IMG/VR virus record: IMGVR_UViG_3300034053_000029
Location: 1 to 64,000 of that record
Length of the DNA stretch: 64,000 nucleotides
Reading direction: 5' to 3' (one strand)
Origin: a virus
Lineage: Duplodnaviria > Caudoviricetes
Shown here in pieces: positions 682 through 58,521 of the stretch; the stretch's first letter is position 1, and each line of letters begins with the position of its first letter. The translations under genes were made by a program, and so were the position numbers. The notes under the pieces are model-generated. The model was given only the letters and a program-made list of their open reading frames with translations, had not been told where the DNA came from and made no database searches.

Positions 682-1536
682 ATGTCATTACAACAATTTA
701 TATCGAAGGTTGGACAAAACGGTGTCGCAAGGAATAACAAGTTCCTTGTCTATTTTCCAGTCACCATCGGAAAAGGCAATGTTCCATTATCAAATGTAGA
801 TTTACCTACATGGTATGCTGAATCAGTGGATATCCCAGGAACATTCATCAATACTGCTCCAGTAAGAATACAAGGAAAGCGTCACGAGATGCCAACCGAG
901 TTTGCATACTCAGGAACCTTGAATATGGTATTCCTAGTTGATATGAAGTTGCACATCAGGGACTACTTCACAAACTGGATGAACTTGGTTATTCCTAACT
1001 CAAATGCATATGGCTTTAACCCAGGACTTCCTGACAACTACAGAACAACCATCCAGATTGAGGTTCATGAGAATTTCATGGATGGTGCAGATACACTAGC
1101 ACAAACTTCACAAAAGGAAAACAAAAATCCTTTGTCGGTGTTTGAGGATGCACTATCAAAATCACTCAAAAGTACCAAATCATCACCAACGGCAGCAACC
1201 ACAACAGAAAAAGTAGTTGCACTATACGAATTTCAGAACATCTACCCAAAATCAATAAGTGGGCCACAACTTTCAAATGCAGGAAGAGATTTTCAAAGAT
1301 TGAACGTGTCTTTTGAGTTTGAATATATGGAAGTTGACTTTCCAGAAAAAGGCGAACAAGAGTTCGATAAACCAAGTCTTACTAAAGGGACTGGTACAGG
1401 TCTTCTTGGTAGTGTTAATGGTATTGCAGGAAGACTAGGATCAACCATCGGTGGTCTTGGAAATCAAATTGGTGGTGGAATTAATAGATTGACAAATATT
1501 CAAAATGGGTCGTTAAACGACATCTTAGGTTTATAG
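682..1536 (+). CDS. Baseplate tail-tube initiator / tube-fold protein (gp54-like)
   Basis: ARNNKF..F, AESVDIPG, YFTNWMNLV, V.FEFEY pattern of gp54/gp19 fold; context. Confidence 0.6.
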   Translation: MSLQQFISKVGQNGVARNNKFLVYFPVTIGKGNVPLSNVDLPTWYAESVDIPGTFINTAPVRIQGKRHEMPTEFAYSGTLNMVFLVDMKLHIRDYFTNWMNLVIPNSNAYGFNPGLPDNYRTTIQIEVHENFMDGADTLAQTSQKENKNPLSVFEDALSKSLKSTKSSPTAATTTEKVVALYEFQNIYPKSISGPQLSNAGRDFQRLNVSFEFEYMEVDFPEKGEQEFDKPSLTKGTGTGLLGSVNGIAGRLGSTIGGLGNQIGGGINRLTNIQNGSLNDILGL

Positions 1537-52616: not shown

Positions 52617-53183
52617 CTAAAGGGTTTTTACATACTCCACTACATCATCGAAAAACGAATTGCCCTGATGGTCGGCAGAATCATAGAATCTTTTGTATGG
52701 GTGATATTCGGGAACATCATACGGATCAACCACTTGGTCGTTCTTTGCAATAAAGAAATGACGATTCACCAGACTGCCTTTTGATGAGTACTTATTGAAT
52801 GACTCAACAATTTCACAAGTCATTGATTTGCTTGTGTTTGTTTGGTAATCAACATAGCCGGAATCTAGATATTTCTTGAGCGAAATTTCTGGTGACATTG
52901 CAGGATTAACAAGCACTTGCGTTGCATCCCACTTCTCACCCATTCTTGCCGCCCAAAACCCACCTAGACTAGTTCCAACAAACACGACCTTAGTGAAACT
53001 TCCATCGTAGTAATGTTTTGTTATTACCCGATCAAGAAAGTCATCTAATGTCGCTTCTGCTTTGACTGGATCAACTGGGATACTAGGTGCCTCAACCAGA
53101 AACCCTGCGTCTCGTAAGTCTTTGACTTTACTAGAGTTTGGTGAACCACCAAGTCCGTGAAAATAAACAACTAAGGTTTTCAT
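52617..53183 (-). CDS. YqiA/YcfP-like alpha/beta hydrolase (esterase)
   Basis: YFHGLGGSP.S.K, GTSLGGFWA, VNPA, D.V..., H. Confidence 0.85.
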   Translation of the reverse strand: MKTLVVYFHGLGGSPNSSKVKDLRDAGFLVEAPSIPVDPVKAEATLDDFLDRVITKHYYDGSFTKVVFVGTSLGGFWAARMGEKWDATQVLVNPAMSPEISLKKYLDSGYVDYQTNTSKSMTCEIVESFNKYSSKGSLVNRHFFIAKNDQVVDPYDVPEYHPYKRFYDSADHQGNSFFDDVVEYVKTL

Positions 53184-53214: not shown

Positions 53215-53243
53215 ATTATATTCGATATCTAACACTCAGTCAA
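53215..53243 (-). promoter_or_regulatory. Early promoter
   Basis: TTGACT-17-TATAAT. Confidence 0.7.
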
Positions 53244-53703
53244 GATATACTAAGTGTTTGTTTTCAAAGCGTTCTAGAACTGCTTCAATGAGTTTATCTA
53301 GCAGCACCTTTTTACCGGCAACCTGACCTTTATATTTTGGTCTTTCAAAATCATCAACTGGTTTGGTATGGTCTAAGTAAGTTTCGTGTTCGATCTTACC
53401 ACCACGAACATAAGTGACGATTTTATGACCGGTGGCTTTATGTATAAAACAAAACTTCCCATCCGTCAGCTTTCCACTTGCTCCGACATTATTTTTCTCA
53501 AGCCAGTTATGTGCTTTCTTAATATGCACTTTGACTGACGATAATGGAAGAGGAAGATTCTGCTGATTGACTCGTCTTGAATTGACTCTGGATATGAAAT
53601 GGGACGAATACCTGACATTACGACCATTATCTATTTCGGTTGCATCACCATCAAAATTTGTTTGGTGTGAATCAGATTGTCTAAATTTATCTATGTTAGT
53701 CAT
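53236..53703 (-). CDS. Late-cluster protein, possible BECR-fold RNase-like
   Basis: YSSHFISRVNSR helix then beta strands; coupled to upstream stop. Confidence 0.5.
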   Translation of the reverse strand: MTNIDKFRQSDSHQTNFDGDATEIDNGRNVRYSSHFISRVNSRRVNQQNLPLPLSSVKVHIKKAHNWLEKNNVGASGKLTDGKFCFIHKATGHKIVTYVRGGKIEHETYLDHTKPVDDFERPKYKGQVAGKKVLLDKLIEAVLERFENKHLVYLD

Positions 53704-54262
53704 CTGTATCCTTTGGCTTTCCGTACATTGCTTTCTTATGAATATGCCCACCGATTAATCTTGTGTAATGATGACCGTCATCATCTTTTGAAATTATTTC
53801 TTTGCCTGTGAGACGTTCTGCTTCTGAATTTGGAACTTTATTTGCTCCCATCTTCTCAGCAACTTTAGCAGCAGGACCAGACTTTTCTGCCCATGCATTT
53901 CGTTTATGCTGACCACGATCTAGATCATCTTCTCGTGCGATTTCACGATAACCTTTTTTACCTTCAACAGAACCATCTGTGCTTGACACGACGGCCTTTC
54001 TACCAAATTGTTTCTTGTAACCAGACCACGCAACCACCTTACCATTTCGCTTTACACCTTTAATGGTATGAATGCTATCTGCTAGTTCTTCCGCAGAAGC
54101 GGCACCTGCGTACCCACCCATAGGTTCATATGACTTCTGTAATTCATCCCAATGGGATTTTACGAAGTCATGCTTGGCAGCAACATAATCGTCATGCTTA
54201 TCGAACTTGTCAGGATGAATTGTTATCATCCTTTCTGTGATGAAAGTCTTGAATGTGATCAT
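53696..54262 (-). CDS. Putative capsid-internal protein
   Basis: N-term MITFKTFITE; CATAAATA late promoter at 54289-96. Confidence 0.7.
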   Translation of the reverse strand: MITFKTFITERMITIHPDKFDKHDDYVAAKHDFVKSHWDELQKSYEPMGGYAGAASAEELADSIHTIKGVKRNGKVVAWSGYKKQFGRKAVVSSTDGSVEGKKGYREIAREDDLDRGQHKRNAWAEKSGPAAKVAEKMGANKVPNSEAERLTGKEIISKDDDGHHYTRLIGGHIHKKAMYGKPKDTDD

Positions 54263-54301
54263 ACCTATCCACAATAGTTATTTGTGAATATTTATGCATA
54301 C

Positions 54302-54421
54302 TCAATAACCAGTGATGGTGATGGTCAGGGTATCAAAGGAAGCACGGAATGCGATATTCCGAGTGGTCATAGCAGCACAACCGTCAAAGAACTCTTCAGC
54401 AGTATTGAAAGTGATGATCAT
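54302..54421 (-). CDS. Small early protein (39 aa, not in ORF track)
   Basis: AAGGAG RBS; MIITFNTAEEFFDGCAAMTTRNIAFRASFDTLTITITGY. Confidence 0.6.
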   Translation of the reverse strand: MIITFNTAEEFFDGCAAMTTRNIAFRASFDTLTITITGY

Positions 54422-54446
54422 GATAGTCTCCTTGTTGATGTAACGA

Positions 54447-54496
54447 ATTATAGAGACTTTCTGAAACTTGTCAATGAGTTTATTAAGTCATTGATT
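54447..54496 (-). promoter_or_regulatory. Early promoter with IHF box
   Basis: TTGACA-16-TATAAT; AATCAATGACTTA. Confidence 0.8.
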
Positions 54497-54499
54497 TAC

Positions 54500-54538
54500 A
54501 AAAGAAAAAAGGCAACACCCTTTCGGAATGTTGCCTTT
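54500..54538 (-). terminator. Intrinsic terminator
   Basis: AAAGGCAACA...TGTTGCCTTT followed by T-run on minus strand. Confidence 0.75.
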
Positions 54539-54554
54539 GTGGTGCGACTTGTGA

Positions 54555-56288
54555 TTATTTTTTCTTTTTCTTTTTCAATCCGCTAATATCAACTGCTTGA
54601 GCAGGTGCGTATGTCTTACCTTTCGCAGACTCTTGATCGTGTGGATGGTCGATATCCCAAATACCACCGTTATGCTTTGCCTTCTCAGCAGCACCCCTTG
54701 CATCATGGGTGAATTCGCTACTAGCAGTTTTTTCTAGATTAGTTGATAGGGTTGGTGATGTAGCAACGATAGCACCATGAACACCTTTTTTGGATTTGTA
54801 TCTGTCTTTTGGCAAATACTCATCATCTTTAAATCGAGCATCAGATGGGGTTGCATGCCCATTGACCATCACAGTTCTATGCAATCCGTGAAGAACATGC
54901 TGATTATGATAACGGTATAACGTACCATTAACTTTCAGATGACCTGAATGTGCCTTATCTGGAGTGGTTGGCTTACCGTCACCATCGTAGTGTGCTTCTG
55001 ATGGAAGATTCTTTTCTTCTTCAGTTTGATCCTTATGAGCAACACCACTCGACCAATACCTAGCAGTCTTTACATGAGTTGCAAATTCTTTTTCGTCTTC
55101 AGAACCTCTGCGTAAATTGTGAACAACATATGAATGTTTTGCAGGAACTTCATGTCCCTCATCGTTCTTTACCTTGTCTCCATTAGAATCTGTCGATGTA
55201 ATTGTTTGTCTTACTCTGGTTGCGTCTCTTCCAACGTTTTCATCAATGGTGCCACCATTCTTTACTTTTGGGCCAGTGTTTGAATAAGTTACATGGTGAT
55301 CGTTCTCTGGATCATTCAATGCATTTGTCTTGCTATATTGATATGAAATAATCGAAGACTTTCCTTCAGACTTGCGCTGTTTGTTTAAATGCTTTAGAAC
55401 GTGTCTAGTCGATCTATCATTTTCTGCCAATGTGTTTGGACGAACAACGTGTCTCTCACCATTCTTATCTGATCTTTCAGCATCATTTCTAACGCTATGA
55501 GTATGAGCTAAGATGTAATCATGTGTCATTGCAGGATCATGCATTGCTTGAGTATTTGCAGCACGACCTACCGCAGCATGAGCATATTGTGTTTCTGCAT
55601 TGTGAGCAAAACACGCACCTTTTCTAACATCGGCACCACCAGATGAATCAATGCCACCACCACACCCTTTTGTTTGACCAGGGCAGGTATTGATGATGTG
55701 ATGTTTTTCTGATTCTCCAGTGCCGGAAGTGTATACAGAATGTCCTGCAACGTGCTTACAAGCAGAAGCGGCAAATGGTCTACCCTTCTCATCATGTTCA
55801 AATTTAATTGAATCAGTCTTTTCACTGTCTGAAGTTGTTCTGCCAGATGTGGATAAGTGCTTTGCCTTTTTTAATCTTTCAACTGCAGCTTTTTCACGTT
55901 TAATCTGCTCGTCTTTTGGAAGTTTAAAATGTTCATCTAATGCTGCTTTATGTCCTCTCTCAACTTCACCAATACTAAGTGGTGGTCTGTCTTCATGACC
56001 ATAAACTTCTGCTCTAGCTTTATTTCTTTCTTGCATACCAATGTGGTTTTTACCATTTTCCCACATATGTTTTGGCACATTAACAGATGATGCGGCCTTA
56101 CCCTTAACTCCGGCATCTGCTTTAACAATTATGCGACCCGCATGATCTGGATCGTTCTCTACAGACTCATGTAACTCTTCATTATGAATAGTTTCAAACT
56201 CATCAAAATGTTGTTGTTGAACTTCATTTTCTCTTGGCGTACTATTCGCTTTAAACGCTTTAAATCTAATCATTATTCTCTCCATCAA
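54555..56288 (-). CDS. His/Lys-rich late protein with GP88-like domain
   Basis: NTCPG.T.GC...GACF...VRPN...YQYSK...HVTYS; CATAAATA at 56309-16. Confidence 0.55.
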   Translation of the reverse strand: MMERIMIRFKAFKANSTPRENEVQQQHFDEFETIHNEELHESVENDPDHAGRIIVKADAGVKGKAASSVNVPKHMWENGKNHIGMQERNKARAEVYGHEDRPPLSIGEVERGHKAALDEHFKLPKDEQIKREKAAVERLKKAKHLSTSGRTTSDSEKTDSIKFEHDEKGRPFAASACKHVAGHSVYTSGTGESEKHHIINTCPGQTKGCGGGIDSSGGADVRKGACFAHNAETQYAHAAVGRAANTQAMHDPAMTHDYILAHTHSVRNDAERSDKNGERHVVRPNTLAENDRSTRHVLKHLNKQRKSEGKSSIISYQYSKTNALNDPENDHHVTYSNTGPKVKNGGTIDENVGRDATRVRQTITSTDSNGDKVKNDEGHEVPAKHSYVVHNLRRGSEDEKEFATHVKTARYWSSGVAHKDQTEEEKNLPSEAHYDGDGKPTTPDKAHSGHLKVNGTLYRYHNQHVLHGLHRTVMVNGHATPSDARFKDDEYLPKDRYKSKKGVHGAIVATSPTLSTNLEKTASSEFTHDARGAAEKAKHNGGIWDIDHPHDQESAKGKTYAPAQAVDISGLKKKKKK

Positions 56289-56311
56289 TAAAGGGTAATT
56301 TGTTATTATAT

Positions 56312-56791
56312 TTATGGTTTCATTCCATTACGGTGTAACCAATCATGCCAATAAGTTTTGCTTCCAATCCTTGAAGATTCGGCTTTATTGACACCCATCT
56401 TGTCTTTCCATTCCTTTGATCGTTTCTTGCTTTCCTCAACATCAAATCCTGTGTAGTCATCTTTTACCCATTGATGTTTATGGTGCCATACTTTAGGTGG
56501 ATTCGATTGTTTTGTGAGTTTGGACTTTCCATTTGCATGAACCTTGATTGAATCTCCAACCGTAGGTTCATGGGCAGTATCGAAATCTGGAGAATGAATG
56601 AACGAGAAAGAACCCTCTTTCTTGTTATGCTTTATTGCGGTATATTCAAAGTCCTTTGGGAGTTGTCCCTTGGCTTTATTTAATTCATCTTGAGGAAGGA
56701 CATGATCATATGATTTATGAATATAATGATCATGTCCCATCACCTTACCGACTTCGACCTTCTCTTCCAGATATTGCTTGAAGGATATCAT
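56312..56791 (-). CDS. Putative capsid-internal protein resembling C-terminal domain of Dnd-associated putative methyltransferase
   Basis: MISFKQYLEE; FSFIHSPDFD..HEP.VG.S...NPPKVWHHK..WV..DY. Confidence 0.6.
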   Translation of the reverse strand: MISFKQYLEEKVEVGKVMGHDHYIHKSYDHVLPQDELNKAKGQLPKDFEYTAIKHNKKEGSFSFIHSPDFDTAHEPTVGDSIKVHANGKSKLTKQSNPPKVWHHKHQWVKDDYTGFDVEESKKRSKEWKDKMGVNKAESSRIGSKTYWHDWLHRNGMKP

Positions 56792-57378
56792 TTTTTGGTT
56801 ACAGTATGAACACCATTTTTTATACTATGATCATATTCACTTTCTGGAAATACATTATGCATAGCTTCTTGATAATGTGGATCATTAAGTTTTTTGTGGT
56901 GTTGCCAAGATTGGTCCTTTTGAGTCATTCTACCATTACCACTAGAGTCTCCGGTGTAAACGGAAAAATGAAATTTGCTGCCGGATGCAGGTTTCATAAA
57001 ACTCTTACATTGTTTTAGATGAGAAACTAGATGTTTCTTTTCTTTGATGACATTTCCGACATTATTTGAAAAAACGTGATCGGACTTACCACTATTTTGT
57101 TTCTCTACTTTGTCGTTGTGTTCTTGTGACCTGTTGAATGGGTCGAACACAGATGCATTTGCACCAGTAGTATCTTTGATGTGGGCAACACCTTTGTCAT
57201 ATTTTCCACCACCAACATCAGTTACCACATGATCTGGCTTAATGATACCTTTGGATGATACTTGTTTAATTGCAGATGCAACCTGATTTAGTGATGTTCC
57301 TGCTGACTTTTCCTTTTGGTCATCAAAATCACCAATACGTTCCAAAATCATTTCTAATATAATGGCGTTTAGTGACAT
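56788..57378 (-). CDS. Class I SAM-dependent methyltransferase-like late protein
   Basis: VTDVGGGKYD, VFDPF, HVFSNNVGNVI, SGNG..TQK..SWQ. Confidence 0.65.
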   Translation of the reverse strand: MSLNAIILEMILERIGDFDDQKEKSAGTSLNQVASAIKQVSSKGIIKPDHVVTDVGGGKYDKGVAHIKDTTGANASVFDPFNRSQEHNDKVEKQNSGKSDHVFSNNVGNVIKEKKHLVSHLKQCKSFMKPASGSKFHFSVYTGDSSGNGRMTQKDQSWQHHKKLNDPHYQEAMHNVFPESEYDHSIKNGVHTVTKK

Positions 57379-57379
57379 A

Positions 57380-57760
57380 TTACTTCCCCGATAGTTTTAC
57401 ATTATGACGATCTTCCAACTCTGCAGTAGTAGGTTTCGTGTTATGCACTTTTGTTGTTGCATTCACGCTGACCGGAACTGGATTCTCCAATTCATGGTAT
57501 TCATCGCCAGATTTTTTATCAGGATCAGAATTTGAACTTTGAGTAAGCCTCGAATCCCATGTCTGTGTATATCTTGCACCTGCAGGTGGAGTTTGACCTT
57601 TACGAACCCTAATATGAGTGTGCTTATTACCTGCTTTATCTGATGCATCTTGGGCATCTTTAACTTCATCATAGTTTGAGTCGGATTTGCTACCAAATCC
57701 CTCTAAAATCTTTTTGATCGACTCGTTGTATTTTTTATTATCAAACCCATTCTCATTCAT
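57380..57760 (-). CDS. Hypothetical late protein
   Basis: TATAAATA at 57794-801; KKILE site near N-term. Confidence 0.6.
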   Translation of the reverse strand: MNENGFDNKKYNESIKKILEGFGSKSDSNYDEVKDAQDASDKAGNKHTHIRVRKGQTPPAGARYTQTWDSRLTQSSNSDPDKKSGDEYHELENPVPVSVNATTKVHNTKPTTAELEDRHNVKLSGK

Positions 57761-57782
57761 GTAATTATCCTTTATGATTGAT

Positions 57783-57983
57783 TCATATGAATATATTTAT
57801 AGAATGTCCTTTTGGAGAATTTTCCATAATAATTCCATCACTTCTATATATCGGATAATATGTCAATGTGGTTGATGCCTCAATGACTTCCGAATTACCC
57901 AACGTCACTACATTGTATTGTGTCGAAAGAACACCACACGGAGAGACGTATGGGTAATATGTCGGGTAGTTACAGATCACCAT
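57783..57983 (-). CDS. Hypothetical protein
   Basis: ORF track. Confidence 0.4.
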   Translation of the reverse strand: MVICNYPTYYPYVSPCGVLSTQYNVVTLGNSEVIEASTTLTYYPIYRSDGIIMENSPKGHSINIFI

Positions 57984-58521
57984 GATGGTCGAATGTCACT
58001 GGAATTTTTTGCATTTCGGCAATGAGGTCTTCCATATTGTAAAATTTAAAATTGTTGGTGTCAATCCCAACGTCTTTAATGCGACCTTGGAGACCAGTAG
58101 GACTAGAATGACAGTGGCCATGAAAATGTATTGCTCCATGCCCCATACCATTCCATCGAGCCATAGGGAAATGGCACATAACAATCTTCTGTTTGTTGAT
58201 CGTGATTTCCTTTAGCTTTTCGACCCAAACAAAATATCGATGAAGCTCGACTTCCTTACGGATTCGATAATCGTGGTTTCCAAGAACGAGCTTGATTTGT
58301 CCTGTGAGCTTTGGCAGAAGATCATACAGACGTTCCTTGCGACCCATAGCAAGATCGCCAAGCACATAAATTTCATCGTGTGGCTTGACCGTTGAAGTCC
58401 AGTAATCAAGTAACGCCTCACTCATGGCATCACTTGTGTCAAATGCGCCACGAGATTCTTGGCAGTATTTTACGATATTCTCATGGTAAAAATGGGTATC
58501 CGCTGTAATCCAAATTGTCAT
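57970..58521 (-). CDS. Calcineurin-like phosphoesterase (phage type)
   Basis: ADTHF.H.NI, YVLGD, GNHD, CHFP, HGHCH. Confidence 0.9.
   Translation of the reverse strand: MTIWITADTHFYHENIVKYCQESRGAFDTSDAMSEALLDYWTSTVKPHDEIYVLGDLAMGRKERLYDLLPKLTGQIKLVLGNHDYRIRKEVELHRYFVWVEKLKEITINKQKIVMCHFPMARWNGMGHGAIHFHGHCHSSPTGLQGRIKDVGIDTNNFKFYNMEDLIAEMQKIPVTFDHHGDL

Follow-up and report, generated by a model that had tools for sequence, protein, structure and literature searches.

Why would a T4-like phage keep genes behind late-type promoters in the middle of a region that is otherwise equipped for early expression? The question is raised by six minus-strand open reading frames (ORF1 to ORF6) that lie, together with their promoters, between positions 53236 and 57801 of a stretch of 64,000 nucleotides (the window), which is the first 64 kb of a complete IMG/VR virus genome of 210,171 bp (IMGVR_UViG_3300034053_000029). 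The phage is an uncultured, distant T4-type myovirus; its closest sheath proteins in the phage collection are ~43% identical and come from cyanophages and pelagiphages, and a search of the cluster DNA against 50,697 phage records gave no match. The best reading of our comparisons is that these are cargo genes whose products would follow the T4 internal-protein pathway, i.e., would be loaded into the prohead, trimmed, and ejected with the genome. Comparative support for late-made, capsid-targeted cargo is strong for four of the six, ORF2 to ORF5, because their leaders agree with what experiments on T4 have defined as the determinants of its tag and are kept within each protein family while the bodies behind them differ, because genes for a gp21-type protease and a scaffold are present in the genome, and because other authors have predicted injection for polyvalent proteins in which three of the domains are found again. 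The original prediction, made from the sequence of the window, had extended this role to all six; it is not supported for ORF1 and ORF6, which have neither a canonical tag nor detectable relatives. We consider it likely that ORF3, ORF4, and ORF5, at least, are loaded and trimmed, and put an enzymatic role of the cargo in the first minutes within the next host at roughly even chances.

Late-type promoter boxes

The heptamer ATAAATA is found 79 times in the genome, and 34 of these copies lie no more than 70 nucleotides (nt) upstream of a start on the same strand, versus ~4.6 expected from the genome fraction covered by the 70-nt stretches upstream of starts, i.e., an enrichment of about 7-fold. 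It precedes structural genes by 31–60 nt (sheath, 60 nt; tube, 38 nt; baseplate wedge, 31 nt), and when all 8-mers ahead of predicted starts were counted without bias, CATAAATA, ATAAATAT, and TAAATATA ranked high. The T4 octamer in full, TATAAATA, is rare, with 19 copies in the genome, and shows no enrichment in the window (five found versus 3.7 expected). By analogy, we concluded that ATAAATA is the late-promoter core of this phage and that the cluster boxes are late-type promoters.

Three such boxes had been predicted, starting at 57794, 56309, and 54289, and all of them are present, with a spacing to the following start similar to that before the structural genes; the six reading frames are likewise all in place, on the minus strand like every feature of the cluster. 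The first box, TATAAATA (57794–57801), has its ATAAATA core starting 40 nt before the ATG of ORF1 (57380–57760, 126 amino acids), which opens an operon with ORF2 (56788–57378, 196 amino acids) and ORF3 (56312–56791, 159 amino acids); the gap between ORF1 and ORF2 is 1 nt, and the ORF2 stop and ORF3 start overlap (ATGA). The second box, CATAAATA (56309–56316), sits over the ORF3 stop codon, 42 nt before the ATG of ORF4 (54555–56273, 572 amino acids), and the unit of ORF1 to ORF4 is closed by a strong intrinsic terminator (54508–54538) with a 13-bp stem and a T run. The third, again CATAAATA (54289–54296), stands 33 nt before the ATG of ORF5 (53696–54262, 188 amino acids), the end of which overlaps the start of ORF6 (53236–53700, 154 amino acids), indicating that the two are probably co-translated.

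The surroundings are early in character, as had been proposed: the flanking genes are on the minus strand and have sigma-70-like promoters that score 11–12 of 12. Perfect or near-perfect promoters of this type are also found at 58064 and at 54474, the latter (54447–54474, TTGACA-16-TATAAT) scoring 12/12.

Leaders resembling the T4 capsid-targeting sequence

The T4 internal proteins IPI, IPII, and IPIII carry a capsid-targeting sequence (Mullaney and Black 1996, as reviewed in PMC9026906 and PMC3012670). In IPIII, the first 10 residues are sufficient; targeting is mainly by residues 4 and 7, while processing depends on residues 8 and 10, with gp21 cutting after L/I-X-E (PMC9026906). These determinants give the strict pattern M..[FY]..[FY][IL].E, which we applied to the 1680 ATG-started frames of at least 50 amino acids in the six reading frames of the genome. 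The pattern heads six of them, all on the coding strand, versus 0.012 expected from its internal frequency. Two are ORF3 (MISFKQYLEE) and ORF5 (MITFKTFITE); the other four are minus-strand genes outside the window, starting at genome positions 100465 (MKTYKEFIVE, 98990–100465, 491 amino acids), 151019 (MITFKEYISE, 150468–151019), 166043 (MKTFKDFILE, 165810–166043), and 167955 (MNTFKEYLFE, 178 amino acids). There are near matches in ORF4 (MIRFKAFKAN), which the original prediction had missed, and in a minus-strand gene starting at 85435 (MKSYLQLIKE, 84806–85435), also outside the window. Those of the five outside genes with a tag or near-tag that were compared with Pfam gave no match, and most of the five are His-rich.

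The N-termini that had been singled out from the letters are present in ORF3 and ORF5 (as above), in ORF2 (MSLNAIILEMILE), and in ORF1 (KKILEG). The aromatic pair is F4 and Y7 in ORF3 and F4 and F7 in both ORF4 and ORF5; it is absent from ORF1, ORF2, and ORF6 and present in ORF2 relatives. Sites of the I/L-x-E type are LEE at residues 8–10 of ORF3, ITE at 8–10 of ORF5, LHE at 36–38 of ORF4, and ILE at 7–9 and 11–13 of ORF2; ORF1 has only ILE at 18–20, followed by G, and ORF6 has none. The tag leaders use different synonymous codons, only 13–23 of 30 nt being identical between them, which points to conservation of the peptide and not to a repeated piece of DNA. Tag-bearing proteins average 7.9% His versus 2.5% elsewhere (Mann-Whitney p = 1e-5), with an isoelectric point (pI) of about 9. 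The expected richness in His and Lys holds for ORF2 to ORF6 (5.3–8.2% His versus a genome mean of 2.6%; pI about 9), with ORF1 being milder (4.0% His, pI 7.0).

The head machinery to go with such leaders is encoded by the same genome, i.e., a gp21-type prohead protease (genome positions 132208–132912, minus strand; Peptidase_S77, 68 bits versus a cut-off of 27) and a gp22-type scaffold (phrog_237, E 5e-68), along with tail sheath, tail tube, baseplate wedge, and the Gp23 major capsid protein. Gp23 has LQE followed by A at residue 53, just ahead of the Pfam Gp23 core that starts at residue 61, which fits a T4-like protease specificity in this phage.

ORF2 and ORF3: a putative split methyltransferase

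ORF3 has a canonical leader, MISFKQYLEE followed by K, in front of a widespread domain (VGK.IGG..YVH..Y) that is the partner of the ORF2-type domain. An exhaustive search returned 927 relatives, many being domains inside proteins of 1000–5400 amino acids, and these giants also carry Kinase-PolyVal, GNAT, or Methyltransf_23 domains. In 22 of the 150 best hits the ORF3 domain is fused to an ORF2-like domain, in both orders, and because of these fusions ORF2 and ORF3 are, on sequence comparison, two halves of one enzyme type that is split into two genes here. ORF2 carries a class I S-adenosylmethionine (SAM)-methyltransferase-like domain. Pfam Methyltransf_23 is matched by 7 of 11 members of its family (best E 2.3e-5), with no match for ORF2 itself, and a SAM-binding-like loop, DVGGGKYD, is invariant in the family; the label methyltransferase-like, given earlier to this pair, agrees with these family matches. 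Family profiles of ORF2, ORF4, and ORF5 searched against PDB sequences gave nothing meaningful.

The ORF2 leader is degenerate, with two IxE sites. In an alignment of ten relatives, variable leaders precede a common body that starts with Q-x-x-T-S-A-x-T-S, and some of these leaders are canonical (MKTFKQFFIE, MKNFKQFILE, MKTFKNFILE). Standalone ORF3 relatives are of two kinds, one with tags such as MLSFKEYLAE, MINFKEFINE, and MKTFREFLAE, and one that starts straight with the conserved body. In Vibrio phage D479 the ORF3 homologue starts with MIEFIAE and its neighbour with MIEFITE, and a 163-residue protein in locus L016 has only the leader in common with ORF3.

A known family with the same two-domain make-up as ORF2 plus ORF3 is TIGR04096, the DNA-phosphorothioation-associated putative methyltransferase. 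ORF3 matches its C-terminal part only (25 bits), ORF2 does not match, and fused ORF2-ORF3 relatives match both ends weakly (29–53 bits), all below the family cut-off of 150 bits. The phage differs in that the pair is split into two genes, and no dnd genes were seen nearby.

A side observation concerns Vibrio phage KVP40 (locus L011, 227892–236299), where the ORF3 homologue KVP40.0371 and the tag-like KVP40.0372 (MIEFLTE) are flanked by two genes annotated as prohead protease inhibitors.

ORF4: a member of the GP88 family

ORF4 matches Pfam GP88 (PF17338) over residues 191–397 with 34.4 bits versus a cut-off of 24.4 (E 2.7e-8), which agrees with the GP88-like label of the original prediction, and many of its relatives bear a precomputed PF17338 label. 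The family is very large. Its members, at about 50% identity, share many invariant His, Asp, and Arg residues and the invariant cysteines C197, C204, and C221. In the open-access literature we found no paper naming PF17338 or GP88 as a phage protein family.

For ORF4, an upstream start proposed by the gene caller (MERIM...) was rejected in favour of the ATG at 56273, which is preceded by the Shine-Dalgarno sequence GGAGA and gives an N terminus like the M-x-x-F-K of relatives. There are 62 distinct ORF4 relatives in IMG/VR, of which 11 are standalone proteins with a tag-like leader; ATAAATA lies 37–52 nt upstream in 8 of these 11 and in none of the 51 others, most of which hold the domain inside larger multi-domain proteins, often of 700–1800 amino acids. 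In the tagged forms, [LI]xE followed by S(V)E comes just before the conserved body, which in ORF4 is LHE38 followed by S. Six large proteins with the ORF4 domain were scanned, and two received Pfam labels, one with ART-PolyVal (ART, ADP-ribosyltransferase) plus ASCH and the other with a GDSL hydrolase; one further relative carries ART-PolyVal. In siphovirus MW202545 the ORF4 domain is part of an 890-residue protein whose gene lies between large terminase and portal.

The AlphaFold2 model of ORF4 has a predicted local distance difference test score (pLDDT) of 86.9. Foldseek found nothing in the PDB at E <= 0.001, and the viral structure library returned GP88 proteins and one Gp37/Gp68-like protein. 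In a wide structural search, radical-SAM enzymes take up more than 20 of the 50 rows listed, at Z 3.6–5.4 and a root-mean-square deviation (rmsd) of about 5 Å. The cysteine spacing, CX6CX16C, is not the canonical radical-SAM CX3CX2C, and noncanonical spacings occur in some members of the radical SAM superfamily. Because of the low Z scores and the noncanonical spacing, we take the weak likeness of the modelled GP88 barrel to radical-SAM enzymes only as a lead. The C terminus of ORF4 is a run of six lysines (GLKKKKKK; 54555–54575, minus strand), directly ahead of the terminator.

ORF5: a GNAT-fold protein

ORF5 has the canonical leader MITFKTFITE followed by R. Among 24 aligned relatives the first ten residues vary, with E10 nearly invariant and I or L at position 8, and the conserved body follows. 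The sequence gave no Pfam or NCBIfam hit, and the fold comes from the AlphaFold2 model (pLDDT 88.2): VIA-align gives Z 10.6 to RimI over 137 residues (rmsd 3.5 Å), all 50 top rows belong to the GNAT superfamily with 85 chains at Z >= 8, and Foldseek returns GNATs only, with probability 1.0. By its model ORF5 is therefore a GNAT-fold, acetyltransferase-like protein. The model aligns from about residue 9, which puts the leader outside the fold. A Gly-rich loop, DGSVEGKKG, follows the strand at 88–95 and precedes a helix, and we infer that this is the place where GNATs bind pyrophosphate. The homologue in Tenacibaculum phage pT24 starts with MVNISEYLEE and has a CATAAATAT box about 25 nt before its start; that of Kyanoviridae phage C48C1 starts with (MDL)MKFKTYLNE. 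PMC7824862 cites a phage GNAT that acetylates RNA polymerase. The possible RNase of the original prediction was rejected, as no ORF of the cluster gave a nuclease signal, ORF5 has the GNAT fold in its model, and ORF6 has no relatives and no family hit.

Downstream of ORF6 lies a YqiA-like alpha/beta-hydrolase (esterase) gene (52617–53183, minus strand) with its own sigma-70-like promoter. Homologues of this esterase adjoin ORF5-type GNAT genes in C48C1 and in IMG/VR loci L018–L020, L024, and L026, and a GP88 polyprotein (L079) carries a GDSL hydrolase domain; there may be a functional link of esterase, GNAT, and GP88. The 'esterase/lipase' gp056 of pT24 gave no BLAST match to the window esterase at E 0.01, and the esterase-GNAT synteny in pT24 is taken from the annotation.

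ORF1 and ORF6: orphans

For ORF1 there is no family, no tblastn match, and no related locus; it has no aromatic residue at position 4 or 7. The ESM Atlas model of ORF1 itself has a pLDDT of 0.52, indicating a probably poorly structured protein. ORF6 (pI 9.5) has no relatives, no family hit, no aromatics at positions 4 and 7, and no canonical tag. A 169-residue protein of locus L016 was considered as a relative of ORF6 and rejected; it shares two short collinear segments (E 0.006 and 0.026), too weak for homology. ORF1 and ORF6 might be cargo by virtue of co-transcription with tagged genes, which is the sole argument for it.

Proposed pathway and alternative explanations

We propose the following sequence of events. 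Late in infection, the late transcription apparatus of the phage would start at the three ATAAATA boxes and express ORF1-2-3, ORF4, and ORF5-6 as three units. ORF3, ORF4, and ORF5 at least, and probably ORF2, would carry a T4-type capsid-targeting sequence in their ~10 N-terminal residues, by which they dock on the scaffold core during prohead assembly. The gp21-type protease would then cut after I/L-x-E, predictably at E10 in ORF3 and ORF5, at LHE38 in ORF4, and at ILE9 or ILE13 in ORF2, leaving mature, basic, His-rich enzymes among the DNA inside the head. On ejection with the genome, the cargo could act before any phage gene is expressed. ORF2 and ORF3 would contribute a methyltransferase-like enzyme in two pieces, ORF4 a barrel enzyme of the GP88 family, and ORF5 a RimI-like GNAT acetyltransferase; taken together, this would be the domain content of a 'polyvalent protein', delivered piece by piece with a tag on each. 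Possible roles are protein acetylation by ORF5 and, for ORF2 and ORF3, methylation of the incoming DNA or of host targets, as proposed for DarB of phage P1. What was observed directly are the motifs and their enrichment, the conservation of the leaders, the folds, the domain fusions elsewhere, and the protease and scaffold genes.

Several points weigh against this proposal. Late timing, loading, cutting, ejection, and every substrate are what we infer from sequence, for this phage as for every homologue found. The 491-residue tag gene starting at 100465 stands behind a sigma-70-like TTGACT-17-TATAAT and not behind a late box; the ORF2 leader is degenerate, ORF4 is without a cut site at positions 8–10, and ORF1 and ORF6 are without tag and relatives. 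The sigma-70-like promoters at 58064 and 54474 make early expression of the cluster, or read-through into it, possible; the cluster genes are probably readable from early promoters too, with the 54474 promoter able to read through ORF5 and ORF6. Since tag and late box are both traits of T4-like phages, part of their association among the relatives of ORF4 is phylogenetic. An oxygen-labile iron-sulfur enzyme, should ORF4 be one, would also be an odd passenger in a free virion.

Could the tagged proteins be loaded and yet serve inside the particle, condensing or neutralizing the DNA or scaffolding and sizing the head as proposed for T4 IPII, IPIII, gp67, and gp68, rather than as enzymes in the next host? 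A pI near 9, the abundance of Lys and His, and the six terminal lysines of ORF4 are in keeping with it, and T4 IPIII does affect head assembly (PMC9026906). The level of conservation, however, fits catalysis better than packing material: many His, Asp, Arg, and Cys residues of ORF4 do not vary although identity among its relatives is only about 50%, the GNAT fold of the ORF5 model is complete, the SAM-binding-like motif is kept in the ORF2 family, and the same domains stand beside ART and kinase domains in polyvalent proteins. We regard this role as quite unlikely. It is about as doubtful that the proteins are not packaged at all, with the shared N terminus serving translation initiation, or as an amphipathic localization helix or degradation signal, and the enzymes acting late in the producing cell. 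The leader agrees with T4 at the four positions on which, by experiment, targeting and cutting depend there, each conserved body or fold starts exactly at the end of the leader, and a matching protease and scaffold are present too, while the same domains are found elsewhere in head-module polyproteins; these observations outweigh the leaderless ORF3-type and GNAT or methyltransferase domains of other genomes and the presence of early promoters, both of which speak for an unpackaged set.

Much the least probable, in our judgment, is an ordinary early cluster for host takeover, in which only the sigma-70-type promoters are used and the ATAAATA boxes are A+T-rich matches that arose by chance. Such a cluster would be consistent with the lack of enrichment of the exact octamer in the window, with the strong promoters at 54474 and 58064, and with early-type neighbouring genes, but not with the heptamer being about 7-fold enriched upstream of starts, nor with cluster spacings of 33–42 nt that fall in the range of 31–60 nt before structural genes, nor with the box being kept 37–52 nt upstream in 8 of 11 tagged ORF4 relatives and also before the pT24 ORF5 homologue.

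Relation to known injected proteins

Injected cargo as the preferred reading places the cluster next to the T4 internal proteins, and T-even phages are known to carry diverse internal proteins behind one conserved tag (PMC3012670; PMC9026906). The likeness extends to the 10-residue leader (aromatics at 4 and 7, I/L at 8, E at 10), a gp21-type protease and scaffold in the same phage, basic character, location among early genes, and diverse bodies behind a conserved tag. Unlike them, the bodies here are enzyme folds of 160–570 amino acids, compared with small proteins such as the 76-residue inhibitor IPI*; the proteins are also markedly His-rich, belong to a phage only distantly related to T4, and are known from sequence alone. 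The best functional analogue for ORF4 and ORF5 is T4 Alt, a large ADP-ribosyltransferase that is loaded into the head, trimmed by gp21, and injected and that modifies host proteins (PMC5512222; PMC9026906), although fold and chemistry differ and no ART domain was found in the cluster. Phage P1 offers a further parallel in its Dar proteins, head-packaged and proteolytically processed enzymes, one of them a methyltransferase for which the injected DNA is the presumed substrate in cis (PMC5512222). The proteins are unrelated, however, loading in P1 is DarA/Hdf-dependent, and DarB is a methylase-helicase, whereas the phage cluster has no helicase partner.

For the polyvalent proteins found in phages and conjugative elements, delivery together with the DNA is predicted, and Iyer et al. 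(2017, PMC5512222) also note solo versions near late genes, for which they consider deployment in the capsid probable; GP88 and a T4 tag on solo domains are not mentioned in that paper. ORF3, ORF4, and ORF2-like domains occur beside the ART-PolyVal, Kinase-PolyVal, ASCH, and GNAT domains of such proteins. In contrast to them, each domain of the phage has a gene and a T4-type tag to itself, without fusion, and the cluster has no MuF or portal-type head anchor. Polyvalent proteins have two to fifteen effector domains per polypeptide, and each ORF here has one; the cluster may thus work like a polyvalent protein though its ORFs are not members of that class. We suggest, tentatively and at somewhat less than even chances, that T4-like phages of lakes and seas deliver an 'unfused polyvalent protein', i.e., effector domains as single genes, each tagged to the head in the T4 manner. 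If so, an injected enzyme kit could be read from sequence, here consisting of a two-piece methyltransferase, a protein acetyltransferase, and a cysteine-cluster GP88 barrel enzyme, all of which would act within seconds of the onset of infection. In siphoviruses and conjugative elements, the same effector domains are strung together into giant injected polyproteins.

Diverse internal proteins behind one tag and injected enzymes such as T4 Alt and P1 Dar were already known, and the loading principle is textbook T4 biology, so the gain is in cargo and scope and not in mechanism. New are the particular cargo and its His-rich signature, and the apparent existence of two routes, as single genes with a tag or within polyvalent giants, for GP88, the ORF3 domain, and its methyltransferase partner. 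Two lines of work are joined in this way, Black's on T4 internal proteins and Aravind's on polyvalent proteins, as the same domains appear to use either route. The large GP88 family, to which no function is assigned, and the widespread ORF3 domain would gain a biological setting, namely delivery with DNA. Should the tag indeed load these proteins, genomes would allow a prediction of what protein cargo is carried by uncultured T4-like phages, with a concrete list of first-strike enzymes to set against host defences.

Further features of the region and genome

Between the early promoter at 54447–54474 and the third late box there is a small acidic ORF of 39 amino acids (54302–54421, minus strand) that matches phrog_33188 (E 5e-4); it would be driven by that promoter, is without a tag, and is probably not cargo. 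A 66-residue ORF (57783–57983, minus strand) fills the gap between a phosphoesterase gene and ORF1, overlaps the first late box, and is a candidate gene. Two homing or HNH endonuclease genes lie among the head genes for protease, scaffold, and capsid (genome positions 127387–128856 and 131550–132125, both minus strand), each with an ATAAATA box about 35 nt before its start. The tail-tube family phrog_45 is matched twice, by a 284-residue protein of the window (682–1536, plus strand) and by a 195-residue protein elsewhere in the genome (135280–135867, minus strand).

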